Below are positions 31,985 to 49,674 of a stretch of DNA of 64,000 nt, one piece after another; position 1 is the first letter of the stretch, and each line of letters begins with the position of its first letter. The notes under the pieces are model-generated. The model was not told where the DNA came from. It was given only the letters and a program-made list of their open reading frames with translations, and made no database searches. The stretch is from Moorena producens (GTDB lineage: Bacteria > Cyanobacteriota > Cyanobacteriia > Cyanobacteriales > Coleofasciculaceae): the NCBI RefSeq assembly GCF_965240435.1, contig NZ_CBDEKO010000003.1; one strand, written 5' to 3'. The translations under genes and the position numbers were made by a program.

Positions 31985-32357
31985 TTTAGTTATACAAAAC
32001 GCTGTAGATAGGTTTATAATAACAAAAATATCCCCCCTCAGGTTATTTCTACCTTTCTTGCTAAGAAAGGGATAAGGGGTGACTTGTTCAAAATCTTATA
32101 TAAGGCCCCATAAACTAGCCAATTATTCGAGCATAGATGATCAGCTTTCTGAATAGCTTCAGCCGCTCCCTGATTTTCACCCCTGTCAAACAAACACCGG
32201 CCATAATAACACCAGCCATTAGGATTATTTGCGTACTCCTGAGTTACTCTCCATGATTCTATTAATCAGCAATGCCTTCCCTTTTGCCTCTTGCCTCTTG
32301 CCTCTTGCCTTTGGGAGTATGTTCACAACCGATGATACCAACGCGCTCATAAACCTG

Positions 32358-32753: not shown

Positions 32754-32811
32754 TACTTGAGTTGGGATTCCCGCTGCTGGTAGGGTTTCAGCAGACAGTC
32801 CAAGTAAGCAT

Positions 32812-32851
<40 letters not shown>

Positions 32852-33094
32852 AGATTTAACTCAGCATTATTCCAATGCTTACCTGTTTTATTAAAAAGCT
32901 GTTCGGTGTGGCCTGCCCATAAACTGATAGCTGATAGCTGATGGCTGAACGCGTAGCGTGCGCGTAGCGCTAATCGCTGTTCGCTTACCAGTCCAATTTA
33001 TTCATCAAAATCAAGGACAAACCCCATCAACTATGGGAAGGACTCTTTTGTCTGTCTTCAGACAAGGAGGTTAGATCATGTCGGGATAATTACC

Positions 33095-33190
33095 CTGTCT
33101 TGATGCAGTCGCTCATGGGGGAAACCACGCCAGTTGCTCATGGGGGAAACCCCCAAGACCGCACTGGCTCCCCAAGACCGCGCTGCATCG
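33095..33190. mobile_element. MITE-like element (family B: CTTGATGCAGTCGCTCATGGGGG ... CCAAGACCGCGCTGCATCGC); further copies ~45700-45775 and ~56575-56760
   Basis: Shared terminal motifs read directly at the three sites; boundaries approximate. Confidence 0.5.
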
Positions 33191-33305
33191 CTTAATAAAA
33201 ATCTCCCCATCTCCCCATCTCCCCATCTCCCCATCTCCCCATCTCCCCATCTCCCCATCTCCCCATCTCCCCATCTCCCCATCTCCCCATCTCCCCATCT
33301 CCCCA
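33190..33305. repeat. octamer array CCCCATCT x~13
   Basis: Direct reading. Confidence 0.95.
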
Positions 33306-33894
33306 CCCTCCCTCTAATTATGGGTATTCAACCGGACTTGATATTAGTTATCTCTATTTCACCCTTTAGATAGAGATAAAAGTAATCTGTTTTCGTTAAT
33401 AGTACACAATTCGTGATTTTAGCTCCCCTTACTTTCACCAGACCCTAGCCAAATCAGTACATCTTTACCACTACCCTATTTTTCTCTAGAGACCAAATTT
33501 TTAATGACATGTTGCCCACCCTACAGAGCCGATAGCATTTCTATTTGAGTTGTGAACAGAATCCTTTAAAGAAAGGCTAGAGGCTAGAGGCTAGAGGCTA
33601 GATATAATAAACTATATAGGCATTTTATGGAAGGTCAAAAACTATAATTATTGTTTACAAATCCTTTGTAAAATAAGTTAACTTGAAGGTAAAAAGTTGA
33701 AGTATACAGGTTGTTAATGTGTAGTAGAGAAAACAAGTTAACTTAAGGTTAATAAAAAGAGGATAAAAAGAGAAAAAAGGCTGAAAAAAAATTTAATAAA
33801 TAATCCCAACTCAAGCTCTGACTGCACTTGAAGGATTAAGTTGACGAACTTAACTTGTTTTATTAGAACAAGTATGGGATAGTGAATTTTGGTG

Positions 33895-34040
33895 CATCAA
33901 CAGGACTGATTCTGGCAACAAACCTCAGTTCTGATCGCCCATGGGGTGAAAATGCGGAACAGGAGGTTGCTTCTTGGGTCAAGTTCCTCTTGGAAAAACT
34001 GTCTGATCGAGATAGCAGCGCCTTTTGGGGGCTGTAAACT
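33895..34040 (+). pseudogene. fragment paralogous to the 5' end of the ECF sigma-factor gene (35599..36954)
   Basis: Translation ...GLILATNLSSDRPWGENAEQEVASWVKFLLEKLSDRDSSAFWGL* parallels MLATNLSSDGQWGDKTEKETSSWVEPLLEKLSDGDSSAFWLL... of the full gene; flanked by the same AT-rich upstream sequence (33480-33890 vs 35020-35590). Confidence 0.6.
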
Positions 34041-34229
34041 CGAAGCTGCACTCGGACAAAAGGGTGCAGGGTGCGTCTTACTTTGATAAATGTTACTTAG
34101 GGTTCTTTAGGGAGCAGCTCGCCCTAATTTTCCCCCTCCTTAGCAGTGTTGGGAGAGCCTGTTTCGTAATGCAGCATCAGGTCAAATAGCTTTTAGGATA
34201 TGCGCCCTGAGTAGGGAGCCTGTTCGATG

Positions 34230-34560
34230 GCGGTGCTTAATAATGAAATGATTTTAATGCTGAGGTGGAATGGGCATCTTGCCTGTTCCAGCGGTGCTTA
34301 ATAATGGAATAATTTTAATGCTGAGGTGGAATAGGCATCTTGCCTGTTCCAGCGGTGCTTAATAATGGAATAATTTTAATGCTGAGGTGGAATGGGCATC
34401 TTGCCTGTTCCTGGCATGGCTTAATCATGGATTTTAATGCTGAGGTGGAATAGGCATCTTGCCTGTTCCTGGCATGGCTTAATCATGGATTTTAATGCTG
34501 AGGTGGAATGGGCATCTTGGTGGAACAGGCATCTTGCCTGTTACAATCTTCGCGCGGGCA
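34230..34560. repeat. ~61-bp tandem repeat x~5 (TGAGGTGGAATGGGCATCTTGCCTGTTCC...TTTTAATGC)
   Basis: Direct reading; contains the GGCAAGATGCCC hairpin motif in reverse orientation relative to the 23738-24229 array. Confidence 0.9.
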
Positions 34561-35082
34561 GGATGCCCACTCTACTCCTATTCATTGCTTGATTCAGCAA
34601 CGCCCAGCAACGCCGGACAAGGAAACAAGATCAGCCAAGTTTCCAGATTTTAAATCCAGCAGTCACAAAATAAATCCGAAACCGTCTTAGAAGTGGGCTG
34701 GACAAAACCGCAAGGATAAGGATAGCCTCAAACCGGATTGTTATGGAGGATGTTCTAGTTTTATTTCAGGACTTTTTACCAACACTAGTAAGAGGTAAAG
34801 AGGTAACTTAAAACGTCAGCGGTCAGCTTTGTGGCACAGGCTTCCAGCCTGTGACTTAACTCATATAAAAAAAATGGTTACCTGTTTGATTCACAAACTG
34901 ATAACTGAACGCGCACCCGTGCGCGTAGCGCATTACCTGATAATAGATGAATGATTACCTAGAGGTTAATTATGGCAATATAAAAAAATAATATATGTTC
35001 CTTTAAATACAAAATTTAATTTTTTTTTTCAACCCTAGAGAGCCTATAGGATTTATATTTGAGTTGTGAACAGCATCCCTTA

Positions 35083-35187
35083 CAGGACTTACGCATGTGC
35101 CCCCTAAATCCCCCAATTCTGGGGGACTTTGACATCATTACCCCCAGAATTGGGGGGCTAGGGCGCAACTTAACCGCCTAAGTCCTG
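35083..35187. mobile_element. MITE (family A) with terminal inverted repeats CAGGACTTACGC / GCCTAAGTCCTG; second copy 56971..57098
   Basis: ~105-130 bp elements with matching TIRs and internal GGGGGACTTTGAC / CCCCAGAATTGGGGGG; copy 1 interrupts a sequence that is uninterrupted in its paralogous copy at 33540-33560. Confidence 0.7.
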
Positions 35188-35598
35188 CCTTAAAGAAAAG
35201 CTAGAGGTAAGAGCTAATTAACTATGTAGGAATTTTGGATACTCTAATCATTGTTTAAAAATGATTATTGGACTCTGTCATGCCGTATTTTTTAATTATT
35301 GATTAATATTGGCATCTATAAGCTTAAATAATTAGGAATTAGGTAAAAAAAATTAACAAAAACTTATAACTAAAGCTATGACTACACTTAAACTATTAAG
35401 TTGAATAACCTAACTTGTTTGACAATAACGAGTATGGAATAATTAATAATTTCGGTGCATCTCAGTTTTGTAAAAACATGAAATTGTAATACTTTAACTC
35501 TGATTAGATTATTTAGATTCTGATTAGCTGGTTAGCTTAGGGATCCATTTACAAATATGAGATTAAGCTGAATTGAGTTTGGTGTTTCATCAGGACTG

Positions 35599-36954
35599 AT
35601 GCTGGCAACAAACCTAAGTTCTGATGGCCAATGGGGCGACAAGACTGAAAAAGAAACAAGTTCTTGGGTCGAGCCTCTGCTCGAAAAACTGTCTGATGGA
35701 GATAGCAGCGCCTTTTGGCTCCTGTGGGAACACTATCAAGACTATCTTTACCATCGCTGCTTAAGGTGGATGGGGGGTAATACCACTGAAGCACAAGATG
35801 CTATTTCTGAGATTATGGTCAAGGCTTGGGAAAAATTGCCCAAATTTGCCGCAAAGATTACCAATCTCAAAGGATGGCTGACCAAATTTGCCCGTAACTT
35901 CTGTATAGACCGACATCGAGAAAACAACTCTGGGGCAATCGGAGTAGAAAACCTCGAAGCTATGGCAGTGCCAGAGGGGAATGGGTTGGTTACGGAATTC
36001 GATACCCCAGAAAAACTTGTAGAAAAGAGGGAGCTATTAGAGGTAATCCAAAGTGCTCTAGAGGATTTGCCGGAGAATCAGCGGCAGGTATCTGTCTTGC
36101 GCTTTGAGCAGGAGTTGTCTTATCAAGAGATAGCTCAACGACTGGCAATTTCCAACGATAGCGTTCGTAAACGTATCCAACGAGCTAGGGAAAGACTGCA
36201 AAAGCAGTTGACTAAGTATCTGGCAGGGTTGGATGAAAAGGCTTACGGGGAAATCGCCAAATTGCAGGAGATTTGGGGAGTAAAAGAGCAGGAGAGTAAA
36301 GAAGAAAAAGACGAAGAAAGCTATGTCACTCCCTCAAACAAAGAAATAGGCAAAGGAGAGCAGGAGACAATTGAGAATTTGGAGTCTTTAAGGCCGATGC
36401 CAGTGTCGGAGTCTGCTTCAGTCGAGGAGCCTTCTAAGGATTTAGACAAAACGGGAGTGGAGATAACCTCACTGGTAGAGCCAGATTTGGCAGTTAAGCC
36501 AGCAGTGGAGATAAGGTCACTGGTAGAGCCAGCATTGACAGTTGAGCCACTATCTGAACTACCAAAAGTAATCCTAATTAAAAAAGAGCCCAGAAGTAGG
36601 GACAGCAAAAACCAGCAAATTTTAAGCAGACCAAGAAGCTCCCAGGCATTACTCCCCTTGGCTGGAAAATTACGATTGGAAAGTACTCCAAATCCCCAAT
36701 CAAAGCAGGGGAGCGATCGCAATCCTATCCAGAGCCATGGCGTTAAACTGCTTATGCCCCAAGAGATAGCAATTTCTCCACCATCCCTAGGGTATAGGAG
36801 CATTAAAGCACCAAGAGGAAAGGAGCTTTCCCAGTTCCCAATCCCGATTTTGGCGACAATTGTGTCTTGGTGGGGCACTCTCAAAAAGACAGTAGACCCA
36901 AGCAGCAATCAGAGGTCACATACAGGGGATAGAGGACCCCCAGATCAGCTTTAA
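35599..36954 (+). CDS. ECF-type sigma-70 family RNA polymerase sigma factor with ~250-aa repetitive C-terminal extension
   Basis: Region 2 (...YLYHRCLRWMGGNTTEAQDAISEIMVKAWEK...) and region 4 HTH (...LSYQEIAQRLAISNDSVRKRIQRARERL...); extension has VEIxSLVEPxLxV repeats. Confidence 0.8.
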   Translation: MLATNLSSDGQWGDKTEKETSSWVEPLLEKLSDGDSSAFWLLWEHYQDYLYHRCLRWMGGNTTEAQDAISEIMVKAWEKLPKFAAKITNLKGWLTKFARNFCIDRHRENNSGAIGVENLEAMAVPEGNGLVTEFDTPEKLVEKRELLEVIQSALEDLPENQRQVSVLRFEQELSYQEIAQRLAISNDSVRKRIQRARERLQKQLTKYLAGLDEKAYGEIAKLQEIWGVKEQESKEEKDEESYVTPSNKEIGKGEQETIENLESLRPMPVSESASVEEPSKDLDKTGVEITSLVEPDLAVKPAVEIRSLVEPALTVEPLSELPKVILIKKEPRSRDSKNQQILSRPRSSQALLPLAGKLRLESTPNPQSKQGSDRNPIQSHGVKLLMPQEIAISPPSLGYRSIKAPRGKELSQFPIPILATIVSWWGTLKKTVDPSSNQRSHTGDRGPPDQL

Positions 36955-37629
36955 TTTGTGGTCATGGCTAATTTGCTCATAGCAGCTCAAGGGCATTAGA
37001 ATTACGCACAGATTCCATGGGTAGGGTGGGCAAAACCTTGCCCACCCTACAGGTAGCGTTAAATTGAGGGATTTGCGTAAGTCCTATGGCTCATAGCAGC
37101 TCAAGGGCATTAGCTAGAGTAGCTACTAATAAAGGGTAAGCATTCAGCAGTGAGCGGTCAGCCGTAAGCCATAGTCCTTTGACTGATGGCTGATAGCTGT
37201 TAGCGTAGCGTGCGCGTAGCGCATAGGCTGATAGCTGATACGCGACACGCTGATAGCTAATAGCTGGTGTGTTTTTTCACAACCAGCTAGTATTCCCATG
37301 ACAAAAAACAAAACTAAAAACTGAAAGCTGCCCTAGGACAAAAGGGTACGGGGGATGTTCGATGAAACTTGGAAAAAAGAGAAGCTTTGTTGGCAGGTTT
37401 TAAATCCAGCAGTCACAAAATGACTCCTCAACCGTCTTAGAAGTGGAAAGGACAAAACCGGAAGGAAAGGATAACCTCAAACCGGATTGTTCTGGAGGAT
37501 GTTCTAGTTTTATTTCAGAAATTTTTTCCAACACTAGTACCAACACTAGTAAGAGGTAAAGAGGTAACTGAAAACAAAAAACAGGAACATTATTGAATCG
37601 AAACGTTAATCCTAAAGGAACAAAAAAAG

Positions 37630-38037
37630 ATGGAAACTCGCCGTCAAAATTTAATCTATAGTGCATTGCTTTCTGTTTTCAAAGCAGCAATGGCGATCGT
37701 CATAGTTTTCGCCTTAGCTACCCCTCCAGCATTAGCACAAGCCAAGTCTTGCATTAGCTTATTAGTTGGTGCGGGATATGCAGCCGAAATGCGCGTTGTT
37801 TCTCAAGACGGGAATTCTCCTTGGACAGGTAGCTTTCCGATCGGACAAACAAAGTGTATTGATTTAGATAGCATTCCTGTTCAAAATGGTCATGTCTTCA
37901 ACACTGAAATTCACGCACTTCTAGGGGAAACTAAAACTTGTGATCCTCAGTTTGTTATTCGCGACACTAGCGATCCTAACAGCTTGGTGTATCAAGCCTG
38001 GGGCACAACTTTAAATGTTAGCTGTAAACAGCCTTAG
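37630..38037 (+). CDS. small secreted hypothetical protein (signal peptide, 4 Cys)
   Basis: METRRQNLIYSALLSVFKAAMAIVIVFALATPPALAQA signal peptide. Confidence 0.5.
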   Translation: METRRQNLIYSALLSVFKAAMAIVIVFALATPPALAQAKSCISLLVGAGYAAEMRVVSQDGNSPWTGSFPIGQTKCIDLDSIPVQNGHVFNTEIHALLGETKTCDPQFVIRDTSDPNSLVYQAWGTTLNVSCKQP

Positions 38038-38072
38038 TAATATAAACAACTAGGTCGTTTATATTAAAACCT

Positions 38073-38107
38073 AACCCCTCTTTTATAAAAAGGAGGGGTT
38101 ATTTATT
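38073..38107 (+). terminator. intrinsic terminator
   Basis: AACCCCTCttttataaaaagGAGGGGTT followed by ATTTATT. Confidence 0.55.
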
Positions 38108-38238
38108 GCTTGAATCAGTTATTGCGTTTATCGTAATTATGAGGTACAGTCAATTTTATTACCCCTACTCCCTATTCTCTACTCCCATTAACCCCAAGGG
38201 CGAGGTACCTTAGGGAATTGAGAAATGCTCTACACCTT

Positions 38239-40914
38239 ATGATTGGAATTGTGATTATCTCCCACAGTGCTAAGCTAGCCGCTGGGGTCAAAGAATTAGC
38301 CCAACAGATGGTTCAGACATCAATACCAATTGCGATCGCAGCGGGTATTGATGACCCAGAAAATCCCTTTGGTACGGATGTGCTGCAAGTCCAAGCTGCC
38401 ATTGAGTCGGTTTACTCCGATGCTGGGGTAGTGGTATTAATGGATTTAGGCAGTGCCGTGCTCAGTGCGGAAATGGCACTGGAGTTTCTGGATGAAGAGC
38501 AGAAACCCAATGTAAGATTGTGCGAAGCGCCATTAGTGGAAGGTGCGATCGCAGCCGTTGTCCAAGCTGCGGCTGGTGGTGATATCGACCAAGTGATTGC
38601 TGAAGCTAGATCAGCTTTAACCGCTAAAGCCTCTCAGTTATCAGTTGTTGATAGTAATGATAGTACTGATAGTACTGAGTTTGACCCGGTGGGTGGAACG
38701 GGCATCTTGCCCGTGGGTGGAACGGGCATCTTGCCCGTGGGTGGAACGGGCATCTTGCCCGTGGGTGGGACTGGCTGTTCCAACCCTGGCTACGAAGGGG
38801 AAAATGAGGGTGAGCCCGTCCCTAACGCACCACTAGCAACTACAACCAAAGAAATCCATCTTACTGTCGATAATCTACAGGGAATTCATGCTCGTCCTGC
38901 TGCCCAATTTGTTACTAAAGCTAATCGGTTTAACTGTGAAATTACGTTACAAAATATCACCAAAACTAGCAATATAGTTAATGGAAAAAGCATTAATAAT
39001 GTGATGCTTTTAGGTATCCAACAGGGAGATGAAATAGTCATCAAAGCAGTGGGAGAAGATGCCGAATTAGCGTTGATAGCGTTGCAGCAGCTAGTCGATA
39101 ACAATTTTGGCGAAACAGTAAATAAAGCAAAAGAAGACATCAACCAAAATTATAACCCTTCCAGTAACCAATCCCTTCACCCGTCATCCGTCACACTTGA
39201 TAGGTTAATTGGAATTCCTGCTTCTGCTGGTATTGCTATGGGAGCGGTTATTGTCTACCAACCCAAACGTCCAGAGATTATTGAAGAGCAAACAGATAAT
39301 CCTCAAGGAGAGTGGGAAACCCTACAACTTGCTATTAAAACAGCACAACAGCAACTTGAACACCTGATCAATACTGTTACTAACGATCAGGCAGATATTT
39401 TTCAGGCTCACTTGCTCTACTTAGAAGATCCAGCCCTAGTTAATAGAGCTTATCAGATTATAGTTGACCAGCATCTATGGGCAGGGGCGGCTTGGAAAAC
39501 TGTGATCGATGAAACGGTAGCAAATTACCAAACTCTGGAAGACTCCTACATGCAAGCTCGGGGAAATGATGTGATCGATGTCGGCTGGCGAGTGTTGCGA
39601 TTACTGACGAATAGGAAAGAAACCTGTCTAGATGTGACTGAGCCTGGTATTCTGGTTGCTGCTGATTTAACTCCCTCTGAGGTCGCGCAACTCAATCCGA
39701 TCCAAGTCCTAGGTATCTGTTGCGCTAGTGGCAGTGCTACAGCCCATAGTGCCCTGATCGCGAATATGCTCGGTATACCGATGATGGTTGGTGTTGGTCA
39801 GGATCTGTTGTCGTTGCCAGCTGGTACGGAGTTGGCACTGGATGGGACAACCGGTCAAATTTGGGTAGAGCCTTCTGAGGAACGGAAGCAAGAATTACAG
39901 CTACAGAGCAACAGTAAGGATGAATTACCTACAGAGGTAATTACTCAAGATGGACACAAAATTCCCTTGATGGCAAATGTTTTGGGAGAGGCTGATGCTA
40001 AATTGGCTCTCGATTGTGGTGCTCAAGGGATAGGTTTACTTAGGACTGAGTTTCTTTATCTGGAACGCTTAACTATTCCGATGGAAGAAGAGCAGTTGGC
40101 AACCTATCAAGCCATTGCGGAAATTATGGGTACCCATCCCTTAACGATTCGTACTTTAGATATTGGCGGTGACAAGCCCATTCCCTTCCTGAATCTAGCC
40201 TCTTCTGATGCTCCCTCTGATCGGCACACCCCAGAGCCTAACCCTTTCCTAGGATGGCGGGGAATTCGTCAGAGTTTGGATTGTCCAGAGATGCTCAAAA
40301 TCCAACTGCGGGCGATTCTACGAGGGAGTTATGGACACAACATTAAAGTGATGTTTCCTATGGTTTCTTCAGTACAAGAGGTACGGGCTGCTAAGGAAAT
40401 CCTAGCAGAGGCTCAAGCCGAGTTGCGCCAAGAAGGGTATAGTTTTAATGAACAGATGCCAGTGGGGATTATGGTAGAAGTCCCGGCAGCAGTAACCATG
40501 GCTGATCAGTTAGCGGCTGAAGTGGACTTTTTCAGCATTGGTACCAATGATTTGAGTCAATATGTGATGGCCGCTGACCGTACTAATCCCAAGGTGGCGA
40601 AGCTAGCTGATGCCCTTGAACCGGCTGTGCTACGGATGATTCAGCAAACGGTAACTGTTGCTCATCAAGCAGGGATTCCGGTTAGTGTGTGTGGTCAGTT
40701 GGCATCAAATCCAGTAGGGATACCGATTTTATTAGGGTTGGGTGTGGATGAGTTGAGTGTGAATCCACCTGCGATCGCTACTGTAATTTCAGTTATTACA
40801 CAGTTGAGTATCAACCAGGCCGAGATGCTTGCTGGTGAGGTGTTGCAGCTAGATTCGGCTCTTGCGGTTAGAGAGTATAGCGCTACGCGCAAGGCAATAG
40901 GCAATAGGCAATAG
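38239..40914 (+). CDS. dhaM: multidomain PTS-type phosphotransfer protein: EIIA(Man)-like DhaM domain + HPr domain + full Enzyme I (PEP-utilising) domain
   Basis: N-term MIGIVIISHSAKLAAG...VRLCEAPLVEGAIAAV (DhaM/EIIA-Man); HPr ...IHARPAAQFV...; EI ...GSATAHSALIANMLGIPMMVGV...LRTEFLYL...FFSIGTNDLSQY...CGQLASNP. Linker has in-frame repeat (VGGTGILP)x3-4 encoded by GGCAAGATGCCC-type repeat. Ends ...IGNRQ* inside AATAGGC array. ORF-track TTG start 38218; ATG at 38239 used. Confidence 0.85.
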   Translation: MIGIVIISHSAKLAAGVKELAQQMVQTSIPIAIAAGIDDPENPFGTDVLQVQAAIESVYSDAGVVVLMDLGSAVLSAEMALEFLDEEQKPNVRLCEAPLVEGAIAAVVQAAAGGDIDQVIAEARSALTAKASQLSVVDSNDSTDSTEFDPVGGTGILPVGGTGILPVGGTGILPVGGTGCSNPGYEGENEGEPVPNAPLATTTKEIHLTVDNLQGIHARPAAQFVTKANRFNCEITLQNITKTSNIVNGKSINNVMLLGIQQGDEIVIKAVGEDAELALIALQQLVDNNFGETVNKAKEDINQNYNPSSNQSLHPSSVTLDRLIGIPASAGIAMGAVIVYQPKRPEIIEEQTDNPQGEWETLQLAIKTAQQQLEHLINTVTNDQADIFQAHLLYLEDPALVNRAYQIIVDQHLWAGAAWKTVIDETVANYQTLEDSYMQARGNDVIDVGWRVLRLLTNRKETCLDVTEPGILVAADLTPSEVAQLNPIQVLGICCASGSATAHSALIANMLGIPMMVGVGQDLLSLPAGTELALDGTTGQIWVEPSEERKQELQLQSNSKDELPTEVITQDGHKIPLMANVLGEADAKLALDCGAQGIGLLRTEFLYLERLTIPMEEEQLATYQAIAEIMGTHPLTIRTLDIGGDKPIPFLNLASSDAPSDRHTPEPNPFLGWRGIRQSLDCPEMLKIQLRAILRGSYGHNIKVMFPMVSSVQEVRAAKEILAEAQAELRQEGYSFNEQMPVGIMVEVPAAVTMADQLAAEVDFFSIGTNDLSQYVMAADRTNPKVAKLADALEPAVLRMIQQTVTVAHQAGIPVSVCGQLASNPVGIPILLGLGVDELSVNPPAIATVISVITQLSINQAEMLAGEVLQLDSALAVREYSATRKAIGNRQ

Positions 40915-41375
40915 GCAATAGTTTACTAGAACAGCTTTTGCTGCTTTTATACATGTTAAACACCTTAATCGGTAGTGCTATATATTGTCAAGCAACTGGA
41001 CAGGTCGGTTTGAGTCTTGGCAGGAGTGATACAGCGCTACGGGCAAGGCAACAGGCAACAGGCAACAGGCAACAGGCAACAGGCAAAAAAAAAGAGAGTC
41101 GTTTTACTGACTCTCTCGATCATCAGGGTGCATCTTATATTTCAAATATACCTGAGCAAATGAGGGGTGTCACCCCTCACTGCAAAAATCAGCCAAATGG
41201 CTTAGTTTGTAATTTGGTACTGCAAAGCTGATATCCCTGACAAGACAGGGATTGAGATTGGAACAGTTATAGCGCTACGCGCAAGGCAAGAGGCAATAGG
41301 CAAGAGGCAAAAGTTAACTAAAACAGCTTAATCGGTAGTGCTATAAAATTAGGAACCATTATCAACCCCAGATCT

Positions 41376-42071
41376 ATGTTCGAGCAACAACCCCAAGCAC
41401 TACAGCAAAAGGTCAAACTTTTGGCATTGGAATCAATTCGCCAAGATAATCCATCTCAATGGTTTGACGTTTTATATGCCGAAGCTAATGGGGATTCGGG
41501 GCAAATACCTTGGGCGCGTAATACACCCCATCCCTATCTACAGGATTGGTTAGCGCGTAATACACCCCAAGGGTCGGGTCGCTCTGCCCTAGTGGTTGGT
41601 TGTGGGTTAGGGGATGATGCTGAAGCGTTGGCGCAGCAGGGTTTCCAAGTGACTGCCTTTGATATTTCCCCGACTGCGATCGCATGGTGCAAAAAACGAT
41701 TTCCCGATTCCCAGGTCAAGTACCAAGTGGCAGATTTATTCGCCTTAGATCCAGCATGGCATCACAAATTTGATTTTGTGTTTGAATGTCGTAACATCCA
41801 AGCCTTACCCCTCAAGCTCCGGTCAACTGTGATGAATGCGATCGCATCCTTACTCGCCCCAGGGGGAACCCTCTTAGTAATTACTCGATTTCGGGATAGC
41901 GACACTGAACCGGATGGTCCCCCTTGGCCGTTGTCAGATATAGAACTAGCTTACTTTCAGGAATTGGGCTTACAAGAAATCCATCGTGATACTATCCCAG
42001 AATCAGAGGATGACCCAATTCAACGGTTACGCATTGAATATAATCGCGAATATAGTCACCATGGTTCGTAA
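41376..42071 (+). CDS. class I SAM-dependent methyltransferase (TPMT-like)
   Basis: ...SALVVGCGLGDDAEALAQQGFQVTAFDISPTAI... motif I and post-I acidic residue. Confidence 0.7.
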   Translation: MFEQQPQALQQKVKLLALESIRQDNPSQWFDVLYAEANGDSGQIPWARNTPHPYLQDWLARNTPQGSGRSALVVGCGLGDDAEALAQQGFQVTAFDISPTAIAWCKKRFPDSQVKYQVADLFALDPAWHHKFDFVFECRNIQALPLKLRSTVMNAIASLLAPGGTLLVITRFRDSDTEPDGPPWPLSDIELAYFQELGLQEIHRDTIPESEDDPIQRLRIEYNREYSHHGS

Positions 42072-42426
42072 ACGCTTAATTATCGAAATGGGAATGGGAG
42101 TAGACCAACACGGTCAAGACCCAACCGTAGCAGCAGCAAGAGCTGTACGCAACGCTATTGCTCACAATGCCTTGCCTGGTGTTTGGGAAGTAGCTGGTTT
42201 AGAGCATCCCAATCAAATGATAGTTGAAGTTCAAGTCGCCGTGCCTTACCCAGAGCAAGTCCGAGAAGATGAAGTACTGGCTGTACTCCCATTTGGTCAG
42301 AAAACTCTATCCCTTGAGTCCGGTGGAATGGTGGTTCAAGGCAGAGCAATTCCAGAACTTAATGATAAAAATGATGAGATGCTGATTGCTGTTGCAGCGG
42401 TTACTGTTTTGGTCGATAGTGATTAG
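42061..42426 (+). CDS. small conserved protein, Lin0512-family-like (tentative)
   Basis: MVRKRLIIEMGMGVDQHGQDPTVAAARAV... recalls Lin0512-family N-terminus; overlaps methyltransferase stop by 11 nt; ORF-track start 41986 lies inside upstream gene. Confidence 0.45.
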   Translation: MVRKRLIIEMGMGVDQHGQDPTVAAARAVRNAIAHNALPGVWEVAGLEHPNQMIVEVQVAVPYPEQVREDEVLAVLPFGQKTLSLESGGMVVQGRAIPELNDKNDEMLIAVAAVTVLVDSD

Positions 42427-42590
42427 CTAAGCTATCAGCTATCAGCTATCAGCTATCAGTTATCAGCTATCAGTTATCAGCTATCAGTTATCAGCTATCA
42501 GCTATCAGCTATCAGCTATCAGCTATCAGCTATCAGCTATCAGCTATCAGCTATCAGCTATCAGCTATCAGCTATCAGCATACGGCGGTT
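42426..42590. repeat. CTATCAG heptamer array x~22 followed by CTGTTCG/CTGTTCC heptamers (42610-42680)
   Basis: Direct reading. Confidence 0.95.
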
Positions 42591-42744
42591 TGCATAACGA
42601 TCAGGTCAGGATTGTACCTGTTCGCTGTTCGCTGTTCGCTGTTCGCTGTTCTCTCTTCCCTGTTCCCTGTTCCCTAAAATCCAGAAATTTCTACCTAACT
42701 GAATTGCAAACCGCTGTATGCTTAAATTCATCAACCTTTGTCGA

Positions 42745-44397
42745 TCAAGTCACCAATAAAACTTCAATAAAGCGATTCCAGGTCATAGCTCGTCCATTGA
42801 TGCGACGATATAAAAAATTCACTTCCTTTACACTAAGGTGTGATTCACCTACACTGGCAAAAGCTAAATTCATTTCATCGATACTGATAACATCATCCTG
42901 GTTAGCATCAATTGGTATAAAATAAGTCATGAAGTCGTGATAGTTAGACATCAATCGTTGCTGACGCAATAACAATTCACCAAACTCAGCCAGATCAATT
43001 TCACCACTGCCATCAATATCCAGACAACGAAACAAATAATCCAATTCCTGTTGAGAGATACCTCGTTTGACTTGCCGCAGGTGTTCTGCGAGCTCGTTAA
43101 CCGAAAGGGTGTTACTGAAATCGGTATCAATGGCATTAAAGAGATATTCGATATTTCTTTTGGTTGAGGTGGAGGCAGACTCAAATAAATATAGGTGGGG
43201 TGTACCTGCAATTGCCTCTTGCATCTGACGGCGAAAGGTGGTAAGGATATCTTTGGCAACCAGGTAACGGTGGTAATGTTCTTCTGGGCTAGCGATCGCA
43301 TGTAGGGGAACCGGGACTAATGACGGCAGTGTCTGCTGCAAAAAGCGGAAACCTCCGATTGTGACCAAACAGAAGGGTAAGGTCAGGATGGGCAAGTTAA
43401 CTAGGGTGAAGATGTGGCTTAAAATGCCCCCCAGGATAGTTGAAAAAAAAGCCATAAAAATACCAGCAAGCAGGCTGCGCAGGTTGGGGGCAAAAAATAC
43501 TCCAGAGATGGCCATTGCTGTCAAGATGGCGTTGTAACTGCACAATCCAGCCGAGATGGTGTCAGGACGGAAACCTGTGATCACCGCTGCCAGGGTACCG
43601 GATATTCCCCCCAATAATCCCACAGCTGCCCCAATCGGTGTACACCAGGCAACTGCGGCCAAGACCAGCACCCCAGCCACAAACTTGTCCATTAAAAACA
43701 CCTGCCCAAACCCAATCGGCACCGAGGTGGCAAATTGCGACCAATTGATCGGTTCCAACATAGGTGGGGGAGTGGGCGTGGGCCCCAAGCTATAAACTGC
43801 TTGAGGCATCGAGAGGGCAATCACCAGAAATAACAGCGTTGCCGCAATAAAGGGCAAGGTTAGGGGGGGAAATTTCAGCTTGCTGGCAAACCAGACTCCG
43901 ACGGTCTTGATCAACAGGGTGGTAAGAGTAGAAAAGATGATAGCCCCCATGAGCCAGAGGGGATTCCAGTTACCATTCCCGGATGCCCCAAAGGTAGCAA
44001 GTGCTGCTCCGACTAAAATCCCGTTATAGCCAAAAATACCGTTGCGAAGACTATCGCGATTAAGATTAAGCAAGATGGCAGTTACGGTTGAAGCCACCAG
44101 ACCCACTACACTCATCACCCCTACCCAAGGTGACTGAATAAACAGTGCTATCAGAATCAATAAGCCACTGAGGGGGTTGTTGACAAAGATCACCTGGCCA
44201 ATGCCACGCAAGTTGTAATTCAAAAAATCCCACAGAGGTTGATCGCCTAAGCGTTGATTGAGAGATGGCAATGTGCCTGCACCAGGTAGCAACCAGGGAA
44301 ATAGCTTAGTCCTATGGGGTTTGAAAAGTACTAGGTTGGCAATTAGTTCATGGAGCGGTGAGGGTTCAGGGGTAGCCGGGGGCATAGAAGATTTCAT
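42745..44397 (-). CDS. urea transporter (UT family) membrane domain fused to a C-terminal EF-hand calcium-binding domain
   Basis: UT signatures ...GIGQVIFVNNPLSGLLILIALFIQSPW... and ...LRNGIFGYNGILVGAALA...; C-terminal ~150 aa with EF-hand loops DTDFSNTLSVNEL, DIDGSGEIDLAEF, DANQDDVISIDEM. Confidence 0.8.
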   Translation of the reverse strand: MKSSMPPATPEPSPLHELIANLVLFKPHRTKLFPWLLPGAGTLPSLNQRLGDQPLWDFLNYNLRGIGQVIFVNNPLSGLLILIALFIQSPWVGVMSVVGLVASTVTAILLNLNRDSLRNGIFGYNGILVGAALATFGASGNGNWNPLWLMGAIIFSTLTTLLIKTVGVWFASKLKFPPLTLPFIAATLLFLVIALSMPQAVYSLGPTPTPPPMLEPINWSQFATSVPIGFGQVFLMDKFVAGVLVLAAVAWCTPIGAAVGLLGGISGTLAAVITGFRPDTISAGLCSYNAILTAMAISGVFFAPNLRSLLAGIFMAFFSTILGGILSHIFTLVNLPILTLPFCLVTIGGFRFLQQTLPSLVPVPLHAIASPEEHYHRYLVAKDILTTFRRQMQEAIAGTPHLYLFESASTSTKRNIEYLFNAIDTDFSNTLSVNELAEHLRQVKRGISQQELDYLFRCLDIDGSGEIDLAEFGELLLRQQRLMSNYHDFMTYFIPIDANQDDVISIDEMNLAFASVGESHLSVKEVNFLYRRINGRAMTWNRFIEVLLVT

Positions 44398-44558
44398 CTA
44401 TAGTTGAACAATATAGAGGTTTTCAATATTAGGCTAAAAACCTCTATATTCATTAGACCTCTTCCAAAAGTATTTTTTTGATACTGTTTTCGTCAATTAT
44501 TGTTACTGTTTTCTGTCTGCTGTCTCCTATCTCCTAACAACTGCCGCGAAGTCTATTC

Positions 44559-45578
44559 TTATGCTTTCCCTGTTACTTCTAGGCGATTGGCAATGGCATC
44601 CACTACGGTTTCAAAAATGCCCAAGGAGTTTTCCACCATGGTGTTGAGGGTATCGAGCAGGGGATTAATTTCACAGATTTCCCAACAACACACCCGTGGA
44701 TCTTTAACCAAGGTTTCGTTGAGCAGACAGGCTTCCTTGACAAAAATCCCATTTGGAGCTGGGGTTCCCGTTCCCATACAAATTGTGGAGTCCATACTGT
44801 CCACGTCAAAGGTAACGTAAATCAGATCCACCCCTTCTAGCTTCTCTAAACACCGTTGGGCAACGACATCCGCACCCAAGGTACGAACTTGCTCAGTAGT
44901 CATATTTAGGATCTGGTGTGTTTCAATCAAATGGTCTTCTGCCTCTTCCGTATCTCGTACCGCAACATACACCAGATCCTCAATGCTAAAATTATCGCCA
45001 TCTGCCAGCCCCAATCTTTGGCACAGGTTCCACAGTTCTAAGGTGTCTGAGTCAAGATCATTGATTTGCTTGGCCAGATTATCAGTAGCAGTCGCCATCG
45101 CCAGAGGCATCCCATGCATATTTCCCGATGGAGTCGTATAGGGGGAGTGAATATCGGCATGGGCATCAATCCAAACCACTCCCAGGCGATGATTCGGAAA
45201 GGCTTTTTTGATTCCGGCGATTGTCCCTGCTGCCGTTGAATGATCCCCACCGATTACCACTGGAAACAGCCCCTCCTGTAGGGTTTGGGCGACTACATCG
45301 GTGGTGCGGCTCAGCACCTGATATAGCTTCTCAATATACTTGGCGTAATGATGTTTGTGTCCCAGAGCATCTGCCGAATTTTCGGTTTGTACTCGTAAAC
45401 TATCCAGACTCAACACACCATTCTCGGCATGCATCCGTGCCGCTTGTTTTTGGATAGCAGCTTCTCTCAAGGCAGCAGTTCCCATGGATTGACCGCGCGT
45501 TCCTGCTCCTAATTCCGAATCAACTTCAATCAGCGCAATGGAGGAAAACTTTGCGACTTTTTGGTACTGAATTGACAC
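44559..45578 (-). CDS. arginase/agmatinase-family ureohydrolase
   Basis: Mn-binding motifs VVIGGDHSTAAG, WIDAHADIHSP, TFDVDSMD. Confidence 0.85.
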   Translation of the reverse strand: MSIQYQKVAKFSSIALIEVDSELGAGTRGQSMGTAALREAAIQKQAARMHAENGVLSLDSLRVQTENSADALGHKHHYAKYIEKLYQVLSRTTDVVAQTLQEGLFPVVIGGDHSTAAGTIAGIKKAFPNHRLGVVWIDAHADIHSPYTTPSGNMHGMPLAMATATDNLAKQINDLDSDTLELWNLCQRLGLADGDNFSIEDLVYVAVRDTEEAEDHLIETHQILNMTTEQVRTLGADVVAQRCLEKLEGVDLIYVTFDVDSMDSTICMGTGTPAPNGIFVKEACLLNETLVKDPRVCCWEICEINPLLDTLNTMVENSLGIFETVVDAIANRLEVTGKA

Positions 45579-45964
45579 TCCCCGCCCTGGAAGGACGGGG
45601 ATTCTTGATTCAACGAGGTGACTTGTTTAACCAGGCCGGAGCCAGGAAAAATAGAGGTCTCCTCTCCACAAGCGTATTTGGTCTATGACCCAGGTTTCGG
45701 TGTGCCCCACCGTACCTTGTCTTGATGAAGTCACTCATGGGGGTTCCCCCCATGAGCGCGCTGCATCGCTTTTTTTATATATAGATAGATACTTTTTTAA
45801 TCTAATTTTTTTCATAGACGTTTAAGTCGTTAGACCAAATTACGCAATATGCATCTGATACATATTTTTTACGTTGCCTACTTATTTTTAGATAGTATTT
45901 ATCTAGCTTTTTAGTTTATTGTTTATAATTATCTTATAACACGCTCTGTGAAAACTGTCAAGTT

Positions 45965-46516
45965 TTAGCTGAAAAAGAAAGCCGTCCTATAAGGACGGGG
46001 CTTTAAACCCAATTTTTCCGGTAAAATATTTTTGAAACTGCGTAAGCCTGCGATCGAAATCTTCAGACCCGATTCATAAGTTTGAGTGGCAATAAACTCT
46101 TCAAAATCAATTTCGCCATCTCTATTTAAATCAGCTTTTCTCACCAAGGCAGCAATTTCTGAATCAGTTACGGTGGTGTTGAAGCAACGGATAATCTGGG
46201 TGAACTCGTCAATCGATAATTTGCCACTACCATCAACATCAATCAGTTCAAACACCTGTCGTAGATCAGCCCTAATATCGAGATCTTGGCGGTTTACCAT
46301 CCACTCCATAAAGGCATCCCGTGTCACAACATCATCTTTGTTGAGCAGATTGAAAAGATTGGTTCGGTCTTGAAGGGAAATGCCTTGTCCCAGAATCTCT
46401 AGAGCATCGATGATCTCCTGACGACTGATGAATCCATCACCATTGGCATCAAACAACTGGAAGACCTGGTCAAATTCTGCATATCGTTGAGATGACATTG
46501 GTTTGGTTATGGTCAT
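45965..46516 (-). CDS. calmodulin-like EF-hand protein (>=3 canonical EF loops)
   Basis: DANGDGFISRQEI, DVDGSGKLSIDEF, DLNRDGEIDFEEF 12-residue Ca-binding loops. Confidence 0.8.
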   Translation of the reverse strand: MTITKPMSSQRYAEFDQVFQLFDANGDGFISRQEIIDALEILGQGISLQDRTNLFNLLNKDDVVTRDAFMEWMVNRQDLDIRADLRQVFELIDVDGSGKLSIDEFTQIIRCFNTTVTDSEIAALVRKADLNRDGEIDFEEFIATQTYESGLKISIAGLRSFKNILPEKLGLKPRPYRTAFFFS

Positions 46517-46822
46517 GGTTGAATCTCCTCATCTGTTACCCTATTGTGGAAAAATCGGATCGCGATTATACTACCATTTGACAACGAATGTCCCTCAAAT
46601 CAGCAGATGAGCATAACTGAAATGCTAGCCCTATCGATTATTGAAGATTCTGCTTATAGCCGCACAGTGCGAGAGTGGGACTGAAGATAAAGCAGAATGG
46701 ACAGAGTTGGAAATAACTGACCCCCCTTTTCAGAAAAGCGATCGCATTCTGGCATTCGTGAAATAGCATGGGTGGTACTCCCCTGTCGGAACTGTACATT
46801 GTGTCCATCGCCAAATTAGCCC

Positions 46823-47033
46823 AAATCTGTAGTTTCAACAAAAGGGACGTGGAAATCGTGCGTAAGTCTAATTGGTCCTTATATTACGTCTCTAGAAATG
46901 CAAGGCTGCTCGATTACCCTACTCAAAATGAACGATGAGCTAATTAAATTCTGGGATTGCACCAGTCAAGACACCAGCCCTGCGTTGGGGATTATGATTA
47001 GATATGATATCTGGGAGCATCAGTATAGCGGTT
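46823..47033 (+). pseudogene. dhaK: 3' remnant of dhaK (dihydroxyacetone kinase DHA-binding subunit), roughly 55-60 C-terminal aa only
   Basis: Translation ...VSLIGPYITSLEMQGCSITLLKMNDELIKFWDCTSQDTSPALG... parallels E. coli DhaK C-terminus ...[39 protein letters not shown]...; in-frame stop immediately upstream and no DhaK-like sequence 5' of it. Confidence 0.6.
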
Positions 47034-47299
47034 TCTAGCGTAATGAGGTACACAGGATTTTTTCCCTCTTGCCTCTTGCCTCTTGCCTTCCCCTCCTGGG
47101 AGGGGTTAGGGGTGGGTTACTCTTGCCTCTTGCCTTCCCCTCCTGGGCAGGGGTTAGGGGTGGGTTACTCTTGCCTCTTCTCTGTTCCCATGTTCCCTAA
47201 AATCCCAAAATTGTGTACCTCACCCAATTGAAAACTGCTATCATTGTAAAGCTTAGCTAATTGCTAATTGCTAATTGTTACCCTGAGGCCCTGACCCCC

Positions 47300-47595
47300 T
47301 GACCCACTCTGCCACTGTCACGAACTCGCCGCTAAGTCCTTCGGACTATAGCGGGAGCTTGATTGCTCTGTCGTGACCAGACTAAGTTCTTAGAGAACTA
47401 CGTTATTCAGCTCATGACACCTACAAATATCGTGCCAGTTTGCTAGCAACTGTCGTACAGCATATTAAACAAAGGCGTAACGAGTTATTTCCAGTGAGTT
47501 GTACCTAACAAGGTCATGAATAACATTGTCGTTCGCGCAAGCTTTGTGCTTCGCACAGGCTAACTCTACCCGTTTATCGGAGTGTTCGTGCTGTA
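47300..47595 (+). ncRNA. candidate omegaRNA scaffold region upstream of the iscB pseudogene
   Basis: Position (5' of iscB) as established for IscB systems; hairpin CCGCTAAGTCCttcgGACTATAGCGG; not validated by structure search. Confidence 0.3.
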
Positions 47596-48950
47596 ATGCG
47601 AGTTTTCGTGTCTAGATCAAAACAAACAACCTCTAGATCCTTGTCATCCAGCGAGAGCTAGAGAACTGCTTAAGAAAGGGAGGGCTAAAGTTTTCAAACG
47701 CTACCCATTCACTATCATCATGCCAGATCGGTGCTATTGATGATTCTGTTACTCATTGTCACACAGAATTAAGATAGACCCCGGCTCAAAAACAACAGGT
47801 GTTGCTATTGAATTTTGAGCAAACTGGACGGAATTACCAATGCTTTAGAAATCAACCATCGAGGTCAACAGATTAAGAATGCTCTAGAATCTCGACGAGC
47901 ATTAAGACGTGGTAGACGGAATCGCAAAACCCGATATCGTCAGCCAAGATTTCTAAACTCGAAGGCACGCCCTGACGGTTGGTTGCCACCATCATTAATG
48001 AGTCGAGATTTCAATGTTGAGACTTGGCGTTAGGCGGCTGATCAAGTTGTGTCCTATGAACTGCAATATCTCAAGAGTTAGTCCGATTTGATACTCAGAA
48101 ATTGCAGAATCCAGAAGTATCAGGAGTTGAGTATCATGGACGGGGAACTATTTGGGTATCGAGCCTTGAAAGAGTCCTTTACCCCTCCTGCTAAATGGTA
48201 GTAAAAATTGTGTTTACTGTGGTGCAGATAATGTGCCGTTAGAAGTGGAACACATTGGGATTGCCAAGTCTAAAGGAGGCAGTAACAGAGTTAGTAATTT
48301 AACAACTTGCTTGTCGTTGTTGCACATCAGCAGATAAAGGTAATGACTCGATAGAGAAGTTTCTGAAGAAAAAGCCGGAGATTCTCAAACGAATCTTAGC
48401 AAAGGCAAAAGCTGCCTTTGAAGCCGACACAGCGGTTGTCAATGCAACCCGTTGGGAATTATTCAGATAGATTGCAGAATTGACAGAGTTTGCCTGTTGA
48501 GACTGGTTCCGGTGGCTTGACTAGAATTTAATCGAAAGCATTAAAGGTATTCGAGAAAACCCACTGGGCTGGTACTGCCGCTTGTGTTGGCAAGTCAACT
48601 CCTACAAAACTGTTGCTGATCGGGAATAAAACCAACTGCTGTATAACTGCTAAAGGTCACTGGAATTCGTGCGTACGTCTGATTCGTCCTGACAAGTTTG
48701 GATTTCTAGAAATGCACACGCACCAAAAGCTAAGTTTTTCCATGGCTTCCAAACGGGTGATATTGATGAAAGCGAACATCAAGCATTCTGGAAAGTACGC
48801 AGGACAATACACCAGGCCGAATCGCTATCCGGTATCGTCCAAGCTTTGTGTATGCAATTTGCTGAAGGAAAGTTTGATGTACACCCCAAATATTTGCAAA
48901 CAATTTTTAGGGCCGACGGCTATGAATATCAAGTCTCTTAATGCGGTTTC
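47596..48950 (+). pseudogene. iscB: frameshifted IscB (OMEGA-type RuvC/HNH nuclease of IS200/IS605-superfamily ISC elements)
   Basis: Pieces in different frames: ATG-RVFV (47596), PLMP region ...PLDPCHPARARELLKKGRAKVFKRYPFTIIMPDRCY*, RuvC-I ...IDPGSKTTGVAIEF*, arginine-rich bridge helix ...RRALRRGRRNRKTRYRQPRF... (ORF 47815..48033), HNH ...[34 protein letters not shown]..., C-terminal ...FHGFQTGDI...FRADGYEYQVS*. At least four frameshifts/stops. Confidence 0.7.
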
Positions 48951-49041
48951 GCTGTCGCTCAATTTGCTCATTGTTGGCGGGAATTCCTCTGACCCGCTAA
49001 AACTAACGTTTATAACGGGAGAGGAATTCCCGCATTTTGAG

Positions 49042-49668
49042 ATGGTAACTAAACATCAAATTCTACAGTGGTTACAAGCAGTCGCTACTACACTTGAACA
49101 AAACAAGGACTATCTAACCGAACTTGATGCTGCTATTGGTGATGCTGACCACGGTATCAATATGAATCGTGGCTTTCAAAAGGTGATCACTCAGCTTCCT
49201 AAAGTCGCAGATAAAGACATTGGCAGTATTCTCAAAACCGTCAGCATGACTCTAATTTCCACTGTGGGAGGTGCCAGTGGACCACTTTATGGCACCCTGT
49301 TCTTGCGCTCAAGTGCAGCAGTAGCAGGAAAGCAAGAACTGACAAAAGAGGATATGGTCAAACTATTCCAAGCAGCAGTGGAGGGAGTCGTCCAGCGAGG
49401 CAAAGCCAACTTGGGAGATAAGACCATGTTAGATGCTCTATCACCCGCAGCCAATGCTTTCGCACAAGCTGTAGATCAAGGAGACAGTATGCTAGCAGCC
49501 TTGCAACAGGCCGTCAACGCCGCAGAAGAAGGGATGAAAAATACTATTCCGTTGGTGGCCAAGAAGGGACGAGCCAGTTATTTAGGGGAGCGCAGTGCTG
49601 GACATCAAGACCCTGGTGCTACTTCAGCCTATTTGATTTTCCAGACACTGCTAGAAACTATTGCGTAA
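49042..49668 (+). CDS. dhaL: dihydroxyacetone kinase ADP-binding subunit DhaL
   Basis: MVTKHQILQWLQAVATTLEQNKDYLTELDAAIGDADHGINMNRGF... canonical DhaL N-terminus; ORF-track start 48613 extends artefactually through the iscB remnant; ATG 49042 preceded by GGGAGAGG. Confidence 0.85.
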   Translation: MVTKHQILQWLQAVATTLEQNKDYLTELDAAIGDADHGINMNRGFQKVITQLPKVADKDIGSILKTVSMTLISTVGGASGPLYGTLFLRSSAAVAGKQELTKEDMVKLFQAAVEGVVQRGKANLGDKTMLDALSPAANAFAQAVDQGDSMLAALQQAVNAAEEGMKNTIPLVAKKGRASYLGERSAGHQDPGATSAYLIFQTLLETIA

Positions 49669-49674
49669 TACAGG

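Follow-up and report, generated by a model that had tools for sequence, protein, structure and literature searches.

The dha locus analysed here, which comprises genes of a dihydroxyacetone kinase system (dhaK, dhaL and dhaM), lies in a stretch of 64,000 nucleotides of contig NZ_CBDEKO010000003.1 of Moorena producens (assembly GCF_965240435.1), referred to as the window throughout. Comparison with related genomes indicates that this dha locus is very probably native to its host, a Moorena producens-like cyanobacterium, and has accumulated several strain-specific lesions. As judged from the alignments, dhaK is a pseudogene which was truncated by a separate, window-specific deletion of 1,015 bp, and the genes standing between dhaM and dhaK are residents of the genus. 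Events of each kind are already known, as are the families involved, and apart from a few oddities the decay of this locus is unremarkable.

Ancestrally, the locus would have consisted of dhaM and the genes of a methyltransferase and a Lin0512-family protein on the plus strand, the genes of an EF-hand::arginase fusion and then a urea transporter (UT)::EF-hand fusion on the minus strand, and dhaK and dhaL on the plus strand. A simple deletion took the region upstream of dhaK together with about 228 of its 357 codons, and the remaining codons, about 130, then decayed by eight small insertions and eight substitutions. A non-autonomous IS200/IS605-family element, made up of a putative omega RNA and iscB, inserted in the orientation of the operon, exactly where the dhaK-dhaL spacer meets the ATG of dhaL; the promoter region upstream of dhaK, which would have been the source of transcription for the omega RNA, would have been deleted after this insertion. 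Further lesions are the splitting of the EF-hand::arginase gene into two open reading frames (ORFs) by a 451-bp IS200/IS605 derivative, two insertions of a TA-duplicating miniature inverted-repeat transposable element (MITE), one at the stop codon of dhaM and one in the spacer between dhaM and the methyltransferase gene, and a duplication of the dhaM 5' end whose copies are separated by 5.5 kb of other DNA.

Truncation and decay of dhaK

The relatives used for comparison were M. producens 3L, Moorena sp. SIO1F2, SIO4A3 and the metagenomic Moorena-like scaffold L083, which were searched by blastn and tblastn and by means of their called genes. The segment missing from the window (Table 1) includes 313 bp 5' of dhaK in addition to the N-terminal codons. 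Its breakpoints are at the same position relative to all four relatives, the junction shows 1 bp of microhomology, and alignment with the relatives did not reveal any remnant of a mobile element at the junction. DhaK is a full-length protein of 357 amino acids in SIO1F2, SIO4A3 and L083, and intact proteins of 357-358 amino acids are annotated in M. producens JHB and PAL-8-15-08-1, in M. bouillonii, and in many metagenome-assembled genomes (MAGs).

What remains of dhaK corresponds to DhaK residues ~229-357, split over three forward frames. When stitched together, the remnant matched residues 231-347 of E. coli DhaK (E=7e-17) and, of the 313 positions of the Pfam Dak1 profile, positions 234-309 only (E=5.7e-16). 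Frameshift-aware alignment with intact Moorena DhaK showed 88% identity, with six frame changes and three extra codons that interrupt the reading frame. A full-length Dak1 domain (TIGR02363 / PF02733; ~330-357 amino acids, with the GGGSGHEP region in its substrate-binding N-terminal part) is no longer encoded, although the Moorena DhaK orthologues pass TIGR02363. A tblastn search of the 64-kb window with intact Moorena DhaK recovered residues ~222-357 alone and no second dhaK. A reading made from the sequence alone had already proposed that dhaK was destroyed and the dha gene set interrupted, which these results bear out, and the DhaK similarity it reported for 46823-47033 was reproduced with E. 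coli DhaK, Pfam Dak1 and Moorena DhaK. It had, however, described a C-terminal segment of 55-60 amino acids from 46823 with a stop codon directly upstream; the remnant is about 130 codons long and spread over three frames, and the stop codon is a frameshift artefact.

The surviving 418 bp contain eight insertions (14 bp in total), eight substitutions and no deletions that are unique to the window, i.e., about one indel per 52 bp, whereas each of the four dhaK orthologues has three to seven unique substitutions and no indels over the same region. The substitution level of the remnant (8 in 404 bp, or 2.0%) equals the synonymous length of the window branch (~1.9-2.4%), suggesting that dhaK has been neutral for about the whole terminal branch. 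As dhaK is a pseudogene and no other copy is found within the window, the locus does not encode three intact DhaKLM subunits, and DhaK-dependent phosphorylation of dihydroxyacetone from this locus has presumably been lost. A scan of JGI metagenomes for a 32-mer common to all Moorena dhaK 3' ends gave no match.

Table 1. Features of the dha locus and its surroundings (positions refer to the window)
Feature	Position	Strand	Remarks
Duplicate of dhaM 5' end	32345..32737	+	12 bp upstream + codons 1-126, inside ORF 32229-32753
Segment between dhaM 5' copies	32738..38226		5.5 kb, missing here in relatives
dhaM	38239..40914	+	Single ORF; PF03610, PF00381, PF05524, PF00391, PF02896
MITE copy 1	40878..40980		103 bp; TA target duplication 40876-77 and 40981-82; overlaps dhaM stop codon
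Older partial heptamer-repeat copy	41030..41091		73% to copy 1; common to relatives
MITE copy 2	41270..41343		74 bp; TA target duplication 41268-69 and 41344-45
TPMT-like SAM methyltransferase	41376..42071	+	Pfam; syntenic in 3L, SIO1F2, L083
Lin0512-family protein	42070..42426	+	Pfam; syntenic in 3L, SIO1F2, L083
UT::EF-hand fusion	42745..44397	-	Pfam UT + EF-hand
Arginase-family half of split gene	44559..45578	-	Fusion homology 44559-45571; GTG start inside inserted element
IS200/IS605-family derivative	45572..46022	-	451 bp, AT-rich, no protein; splits EF-hand::arginase gene
EF-hand half of split gene	45965..46516	-	Fusion homology 46023-46516; last ~19 codons from inserted element
Deletion junction	46579..46580		1,015 bp missing = 3L 8461-9475; blastn vs 3L, SIO1F2, SIO4A3, L083
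dhaK remnant	46580..46997	+	~130 codons
Repeat element	47027..47242		~216 bp; (CTCTTGC)n heptamers + two CCCCTCCTGGGAGGGGTTAGGGGTGGGTTA units (GGGGTTAGGGG repeat); in dhaK-dhaL spacer; missing from 3L and SIO1F2
IscB element	47317..49041	+	1,725 bp, exactly between spacer and dhaL ATG
HEARO/omega RNA (putative)	47317..47569	+	Rfam RF02033 full model 1-211, 75 bits, E=7e-14; gathering score 83
iscB pseudogene	47596..48938	+	84% amino acid identity, 22 frameshifts vs intact Moorena IscB
ORF-distal end of IscB element	48977..49041		Inverted repeat GGGAATTCCTCT...AGAGGAATTCCC; ends directly before dhaL ATG
dhaL	49042..49668	+	627 bp, intact

Genes between dhaM and dhaK

In both 3L and SIO1F2, the genes are arranged in the order dhaM, TPMT-like methyltransferase, Lin0512, EF-hand::arginase (minus strand), dhaK and dhaL. 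The same order is found on scaffold L083, which has also retained the UT::EF-hand gene; the SIO4A3 contig begins within the EF-hand gene and shows only this gene adjoining an intact dhaK. Since the block coexists with full-length dhaK (with one frameshift in 3L) in 3L, SIO1F2 and L083, it must be older than the loss of dhaK and is not its cause. The block is thus a resident of the genus, and its arrival at the locus predates the diversification of Moorena.

The sequence-only reading had taken the intervening genes for a foreign block of ~5.5 kb, bounded by direct repeats, whose insertion or recombination between dhaM and dhaK destroyed dhaK. Such a scenario would agree with the position of the block between dhaM and the remnant, with the repeats on the dhaM side, and with the situation in more distant cyanobacteria (Dapis, Waterburya, Coleofasciculaceae), where the dha genes are closer together without the block, the order in Dapis being dhaK-dhaM-dhaL. 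It is nevertheless scarcely credible: it is refuted by the synteny described above, the truncating deletion has a junction of its own at 46579|46580, outside the block genes, and the GC content of the block is unremarkable within the window.

The direct repeats do exist (40876-40982 and 41268-41345, with a partial copy at 41030-41091), but they represent two independent MITE insertions with duplication of a TA target at both copies, and a link to an insertion of the block is not supported. Copy 1 has terminal inverted repeats (TAGCGCTACG / GGTAGTGCTA) flanking a (GGCAATA)n core; it is missing from 3L at the exact point and common to the window, SIO1F2 and L083. Copy 2 is unique to the window, its site being empty in 3L, SIO1F2 and L083, and the segment 40980-41269 aligns with these three relatives. 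Terminal inverted repeats, TA duplication, the lack of an ORF and presence/absence polymorphism, with empty sites seen in 3L, identify both copies as MITEs. In their short terminal inverted repeats, TA duplication, tandem-heptamer core, intergenic location and strain polymorphism they resemble the TA-targeting MITEs and heptamer elements of filamentous cyanobacteria; they were not assigned to a named MITE family, and copy 1 is different in that it rewrites the last ~12 codons of dhaM. The repeats were also considered as boundaries of the block and rejected, because the sole match on its far side is the heptamer core in inverted orientation, and such cores are scattered in the window (e.g., at 30.7 and 32.3 kb).

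The ORFs that had been read as a "calmodulin-like" and a "ureohydrolase" gene exist, but they are not separate genes; they are the halves of one EF-hand::arginase fusion, which is a single ORF of 502 codons in 3L, in SIO1F2 and in another genus (scaffold L085). The arginase half scores 217.1 with TIGR01229, under the cut-off of 227.6. The UT protein of the window is 100% identical over 546 amino acids to WP_424095678.1, annotated as urea transporter of Moorena producens. Its gene occupies the same site in L083 and adjoins the EF-hand::arginase gene on L085 (UT 81% identical, in an otherwise unrelated context), and a single deletion common to 3L and SIO1F2 (window 42608-44556) removed it from both. 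An insertion of the UT::EF-hand gene in the present strain was considered and rejected, given its presence at the same place in L083 and its pairing with the fusion gene in another genus. In annotation, the two ORFs should be treated as one interrupted gene, the dhaK fragment as a pseudogene, and the intervening block as resident.

EF-hand::arginase (502 amino acids) followed by UT::EF-hand (~550 amino acids) forms a two-gene cassette (window 42745-46516, L085 8464-11656, L083 7943-11641). The cassette is conserved across cyanobacterial genera independently of the dha genes, and homologues of UT::EF-hand are widespread in cyanobacteria. In the literature library searched, no paper joined urea transporter, EF-hand and cyanobacteria. 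This uncharacterised combination of a calcium-binding arginase-family protein with a urea channel, conserved as it is across genera, would be worth following.

IscB and other IS200/IS605-family elements

The frameshifted IscB which had been noticed between the dhaK remnant and dhaL was confirmed: pieces of the Pfam RRXRR domain occur in all three frames, HNH_5 is partial and under the cut-off, and a HEARO RNA match lies directly upstream. The homology spans the full length of intact Moorena IscB, but a single-frame protein of ~430 amino acids with RRXRR/PLMP-RuvC-HNH organization is not encoded. The closest proteins are annotated as 'RNA-guided endonuclease IscB [Moorena]', and intact IscB genes occur in Moorena, where iscB belongs to a multi-copy family; the iscB in the window is a dead member of this resident family. 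The empty site in 3L reads ...CTGCCACT|ATGGTAAC.

In IscB/omega-RNA systems the sequence of the guide comes from outside the element, and synthesis of the omega RNA depends on read-through from a co-oriented upstream gene (Meers et al., bioRxiv 10.1101/2023.03.14.532601). The element of the window is similar to IscB/HEARO elements in that the putative omega RNA lies directly 5' of iscB on the same strand (the HEARO match ends 26 nt 5' of the iscB ATG), the scaffold is located at the edge of the element, and the element has the same orientation as the gene upstream of it, dhaK. Since the omega-RNA scaffold starts at the insertion boundary, the segment equivalent to a guide would lie in the flanking spacer, at 47301-47316. 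Unlike such elements, its gene is dead, the HEARO match is below the gathering threshold, tnpA is lacking from the element, and the region with the upstream dhaK promoter has been deleted.

The 451-bp insert which splits the fusion gene is missing from 3L and SIO1F2. It contains hairpins at 45582-45603 and 45982-46003, its other end abuts TTAC, and there is no target duplication; the end ...GGGGAGTGTCAA resembles the sequence that follows the stop codon of tnpB in SIO1F2 (L081 103-144). Subterminal hairpins, the lack of a target duplication, insertion 3' of a motif such as TTAC, and a tnpB-like right end are features of IS200/IS605 elements, and on these structural grounds the insert is classified as a protein-less IS200/IS605 derivative. 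We also considered whether this insert and the TnpB-like element of L083 derive from one event, which was rejected because their sequences are unrelated and their junctions lie 15 bp from one another.

Across the five genomes, at least five independent insertions of IS200/IS605-family elements have occurred within ~4 kb. Besides the IscB element at the dhaL ATG and the 451-bp derivative in the fusion gene of the window, these are a 1,539-bp TnpB element upstream of dhaK in SIO1F2 (at the equivalent of 3L 8480/8481), a ~1.5-kb TnpB element splitting dhaL at codon ~25 in SIO4A3 (L082 1826-3976), and, in L083, a TnpB-like gene that has taken the place of the arginase part. With dhaK intact in SIO4A3, the split of its dhaL is an independent inactivation of a different dha gene; different dha genes have thus been damaged in different Moorena lineages. 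The region is a further example of how a Moorena locus is reshaped by MITEs and by elements of the IS200/IS605 family (TnpB/IscB).

The frequency of these insertions raises the question of whether the 5' part of dhaK was taken along by the loss of an IS200/IS605 (TnpB) element that once stood upstream of the gene, an idea also suggested by the insertion point of the SIO1F2 element, which lies 20 bp away from the left end of the deletion in the window (3L 8460/8461). We consider this unlikely, as the two points, though close, do not coincide and the junction has 1 bp of microhomology but no insertion sequence remnant; moreover, IS200/IS605 elements are not known to cause adjacent deletions as a rule. 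A simple deletion remains the preferred explanation.

The remaining dha genes and the mode of decay

The sequence-only reading had called dhaM and dhaL intact, and both assignments stand. DhaM combines an EIIA-Man-like domain, an HPr domain and a complete Enzyme I (N-terminal, mobile and PEP-binding domains; PEP, phosphoenolpyruvate), and scores above the NCBIfam cut-offs with TIGR02364 (136.8; cut-off 98.25), TIGR01003 (75; 47.9) and TIGR01417 (499.9; 341.7), consistent with the phosphoryl-donor architecture of a DhaM-type EIIA-Man-like domain joined to HPr-like and Enzyme I modules. With the model of full-length E. coli-type DhaM, NF008478, it scores 405, below the cut-off of 520, as expected from the differing architecture. 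DhaL is a full-length member of its family, with 266.7 bits for TIGR02365 (cut-off 138.3) and coverage of positions 1-173 of the 174 of Pfam Dak2 (PF02734); it is 96-98.5% identical to Moorena orthologues (98.5% in the case of SIO1F2 and 96% in that of M. producens 3L). The translations contain the phospho-accepting His motifs of DhaM as well as the Asp/His motif of DhaL.

Like the PEP-dependent DhaK/DhaL/DhaM system of E. coli (EC 2.7.1.121), DhaL and the N-terminal domain of DhaM pass equivalog cut-offs, and the remnant aligns with the C terminus of DhaK. The Enzyme I module of E. coli DhaM is truncated, whereas the DhaM of the window has the complete PEP-utilizer module. In further contrast to the E. 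coli type, unrelated genes stand between dhaM and dhaK in Moorena, and in this strain the three-subunit system is left incomplete by the decay of dhaK. Comparison with 3L showed that the last ~12 codons and the stop codon of dhaM are supplied by MITE copy 1. Between its EIIA-like and HPr domains, DhaM has a linker (38634-38783) with four tandem PVGGTGIL units (24-bp repeat), the number of which varies between strains, and in the window an additional insertion of ~20 amino acids follows these units.

By insertion of the IscB element, dhaL has been cut off from the dhaK remnant and the native spacer; it retains its ATG but not its native 5' region, and is likely to have lost the native promoter. 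Upstream of the ATG, its frame remains open for 143 codons, to 48613, through the end of the IscB element. This may in part be an effect of old iscB coding frames; an N-terminally extended DhaL is formally possible from the sequence. Scans for promoters and terminators gave no signal above shuffle expectation and were not used.

Neither dhaL (627 bp) nor dhaM (2.7 kb) contains a frameshift, as compared to eight indels in the 418-bp remnant; at the indel rate of the remnant, about 12 indels would be expected in dhaL. Non-synonymous to synonymous changes on the window branch, although small in number, were 18:12 for dhaM (omega ~0.46, below the neutral expectation, P=0.03) and 0:1 for dhaL. Pairwise dN/dS values of dhaL and dhaM (0.15-0.30) are like those of neighbouring genes and therefore uninformative. 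Because dhaL and dhaM do not carry the indel load of the adjacent dead DNA, we hold with moderate confidence that both are probably still maintained by selection.

These observations bear on whether the dha system is dead at all, or rewired, either by an intact dhaK or Dak1-type partner elsewhere in the genome or by a DhaK-independent role of DhaL and DhaM. The absence of frameshifts from dhaL and dhaM, the presence of the His motifs of DhaM and the Asp/His motif of DhaL, and the neutrality of dhaK over about the whole terminal branch (2.0% vs ~1.9-2.4%) speak for this, and the allele-level duplication and recombination at dhaM in this genome makes extra dha copies conceivable. On the other side, the 64-kb window holds no second dhaK, and the protein search gave no hint of more than one dhaK per Moorena genome, the copy number itself not having been counted, with the exception of a possible second copy in the SIO2B7 MAG. 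The lost native upstream region of dhaL, the somewhat raised omega of dhaM, and the local heterogeneity of the insertion rate, with no insertion in the 290-bp dhaM-methyltransferase spacer, also detract from it. Rewiring is thus a tentative option to which we give well under even weight; the function of DhaL and DhaM without DhaK would be worth following.

Besides the dhaK remnant, where all eight indels are insertions, small insertions account for at least 18 of the 22 events in iscB and for six of six in the spacer between dhaL and a BNR/sortilin-like gene. The insertion rate is locally uneven (none in the 290-bp dhaM-methyltransferase spacer, six in the 707-bp dhaL-BNR spacer). Formation of the dhaK pseudogene resembles that of bacterial pseudogenes in the clean deletion junction, the subsequent frameshifts in the remnant, and the intact flanking genes. 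Bacterial pseudogenes, however, are usually deletion-biased, whereas decay proceeded here almost solely by small insertions, with an indel to substitution ratio near 1.

Dead DNA with almost insertion-only decay and no deletions comprises 46580-46997, 47596-48938 and 49669-50375. The BNR/sortilin-like gene is split into ORFs of 631 and 161 codons by one extra A at ~50842-50861 (CGAAAGTG vs CG-AAGTG); it is a single ORF of 782-783 codons in 3L, SIO4A3 and L083.

A far-reaching reading of these data has two parts, which we assess jointly: DhaL and the self-contained EIIA-HPr-EI DhaM (EI, Enzyme I) would have been kept by purifying selection ever since the death of dhaK, while the remnant gathered an indel every 52 bp, and insertion-only decay at a substitution-like rate would reflect an unusual mutational process in this lineage. 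We regard it as rather unlikely. If purifying selection since the death of dhaK were true, either a function that does not need DhaK or a new partner would follow for this PEP-driven phosphorelay in a cyanobacterium without a classical sugar phosphotransferase system.

The prevalence of small insertions could also point to errors of a long-read assembly, e.g., in regions unpolished by short reads, as the source of the frameshifts and perhaps of the deletion. Nearly all lesions are of this type (all eight in the remnant, 18 or more of the 22 in iscB, and the single +1 event in the BNR/sortilin-like gene), and iscB belongs to a multi-copy family in Moorena. However, ~7 kb of neighbouring coding sequence (dhaM, methyltransferase, Lin0512, UT, both halves of the fusion, dhaL) are free of frameshifts, and long ORFs fill most of the window; random error would not spare genes, which makes sequencing error improbable. 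The remnant also shows an excess of substitutions (eight, vs three to seven in the relatives), and faulty base calling does not produce a 1,015-bp deletion or a 1,725-bp insertion whose junctions are clean. An artefact is therefore very unlikely.

Some observations nevertheless weigh against a native dha locus with strain-specific lesions. Insertion-only decay of the remnant, with indels and substitutions at about 1:1, is odd for natural decay, and the frameshifts of iscB may predate its insertion at the dhaL site. The omega of dhaM on the window branch (0.46) is above the rough estimate of 0.25-0.3 for other lineages (14:18, 13:13 and 15:18 non-synonymous to synonymous changes), a comparison that involves small counts and no significance test. 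In addition, dhaK of 3L carries one frameshift, at the QGRRGVG motif (L001 9150-9420), and is annotated as two proteins of 150 and 170 amino acids. It could be a sequencing error in the draft genome or a very recent lesion; the evidence for an intact dhaK in relatives consequently comes mainly from SIO1F2, SIO4A3 and L083, together with the annotated proteins.

The 5' end of dhaM occurs a second time further upstream, the full-length gene being the distal member of this partial duplication. The copies (32345-32737 and 38227-38618) are 5.9 kb apart and 95% identical. The ORF containing the upstream copy encodes a stand-alone EIIA-Man-like domain only (Pfam EIIA-man, E=6.4e-27); this copy holds the ancestral neighbours, i.e., the GrpB gene and two small ORFs, and the relatives align unbroken from upstream into it. 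The two copies diverge about as much as alleles of different Moorena lineages, which suggests that the duplication arose by recombination with DNA of another strain, rather than by recent duplication in place.

The segment between the copies consists of repeats, a fragment of a sigma-factor N terminus near 34.1 kb, an ECF-type sigma factor gene (35599-36954) and a small hypothetical gene (37630-38037). A 24-bp tandem repeat coding for MGRWGDGE units is located at 33076-33373, and the fragment at ~34000-34200 is a degenerate duplicate of the N terminus of the ECF-type sigma factor. Further upstream, the genes of acetyl-CoA synthetase and GrpB are separated by a TnpB-like ORF (28465-29937, 490 amino acids; Cas12f1-like TNB domain, E=9e-8). 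As these two genes are adjacent in L083, this ORF represents another mobile-element insertion specific to the window.

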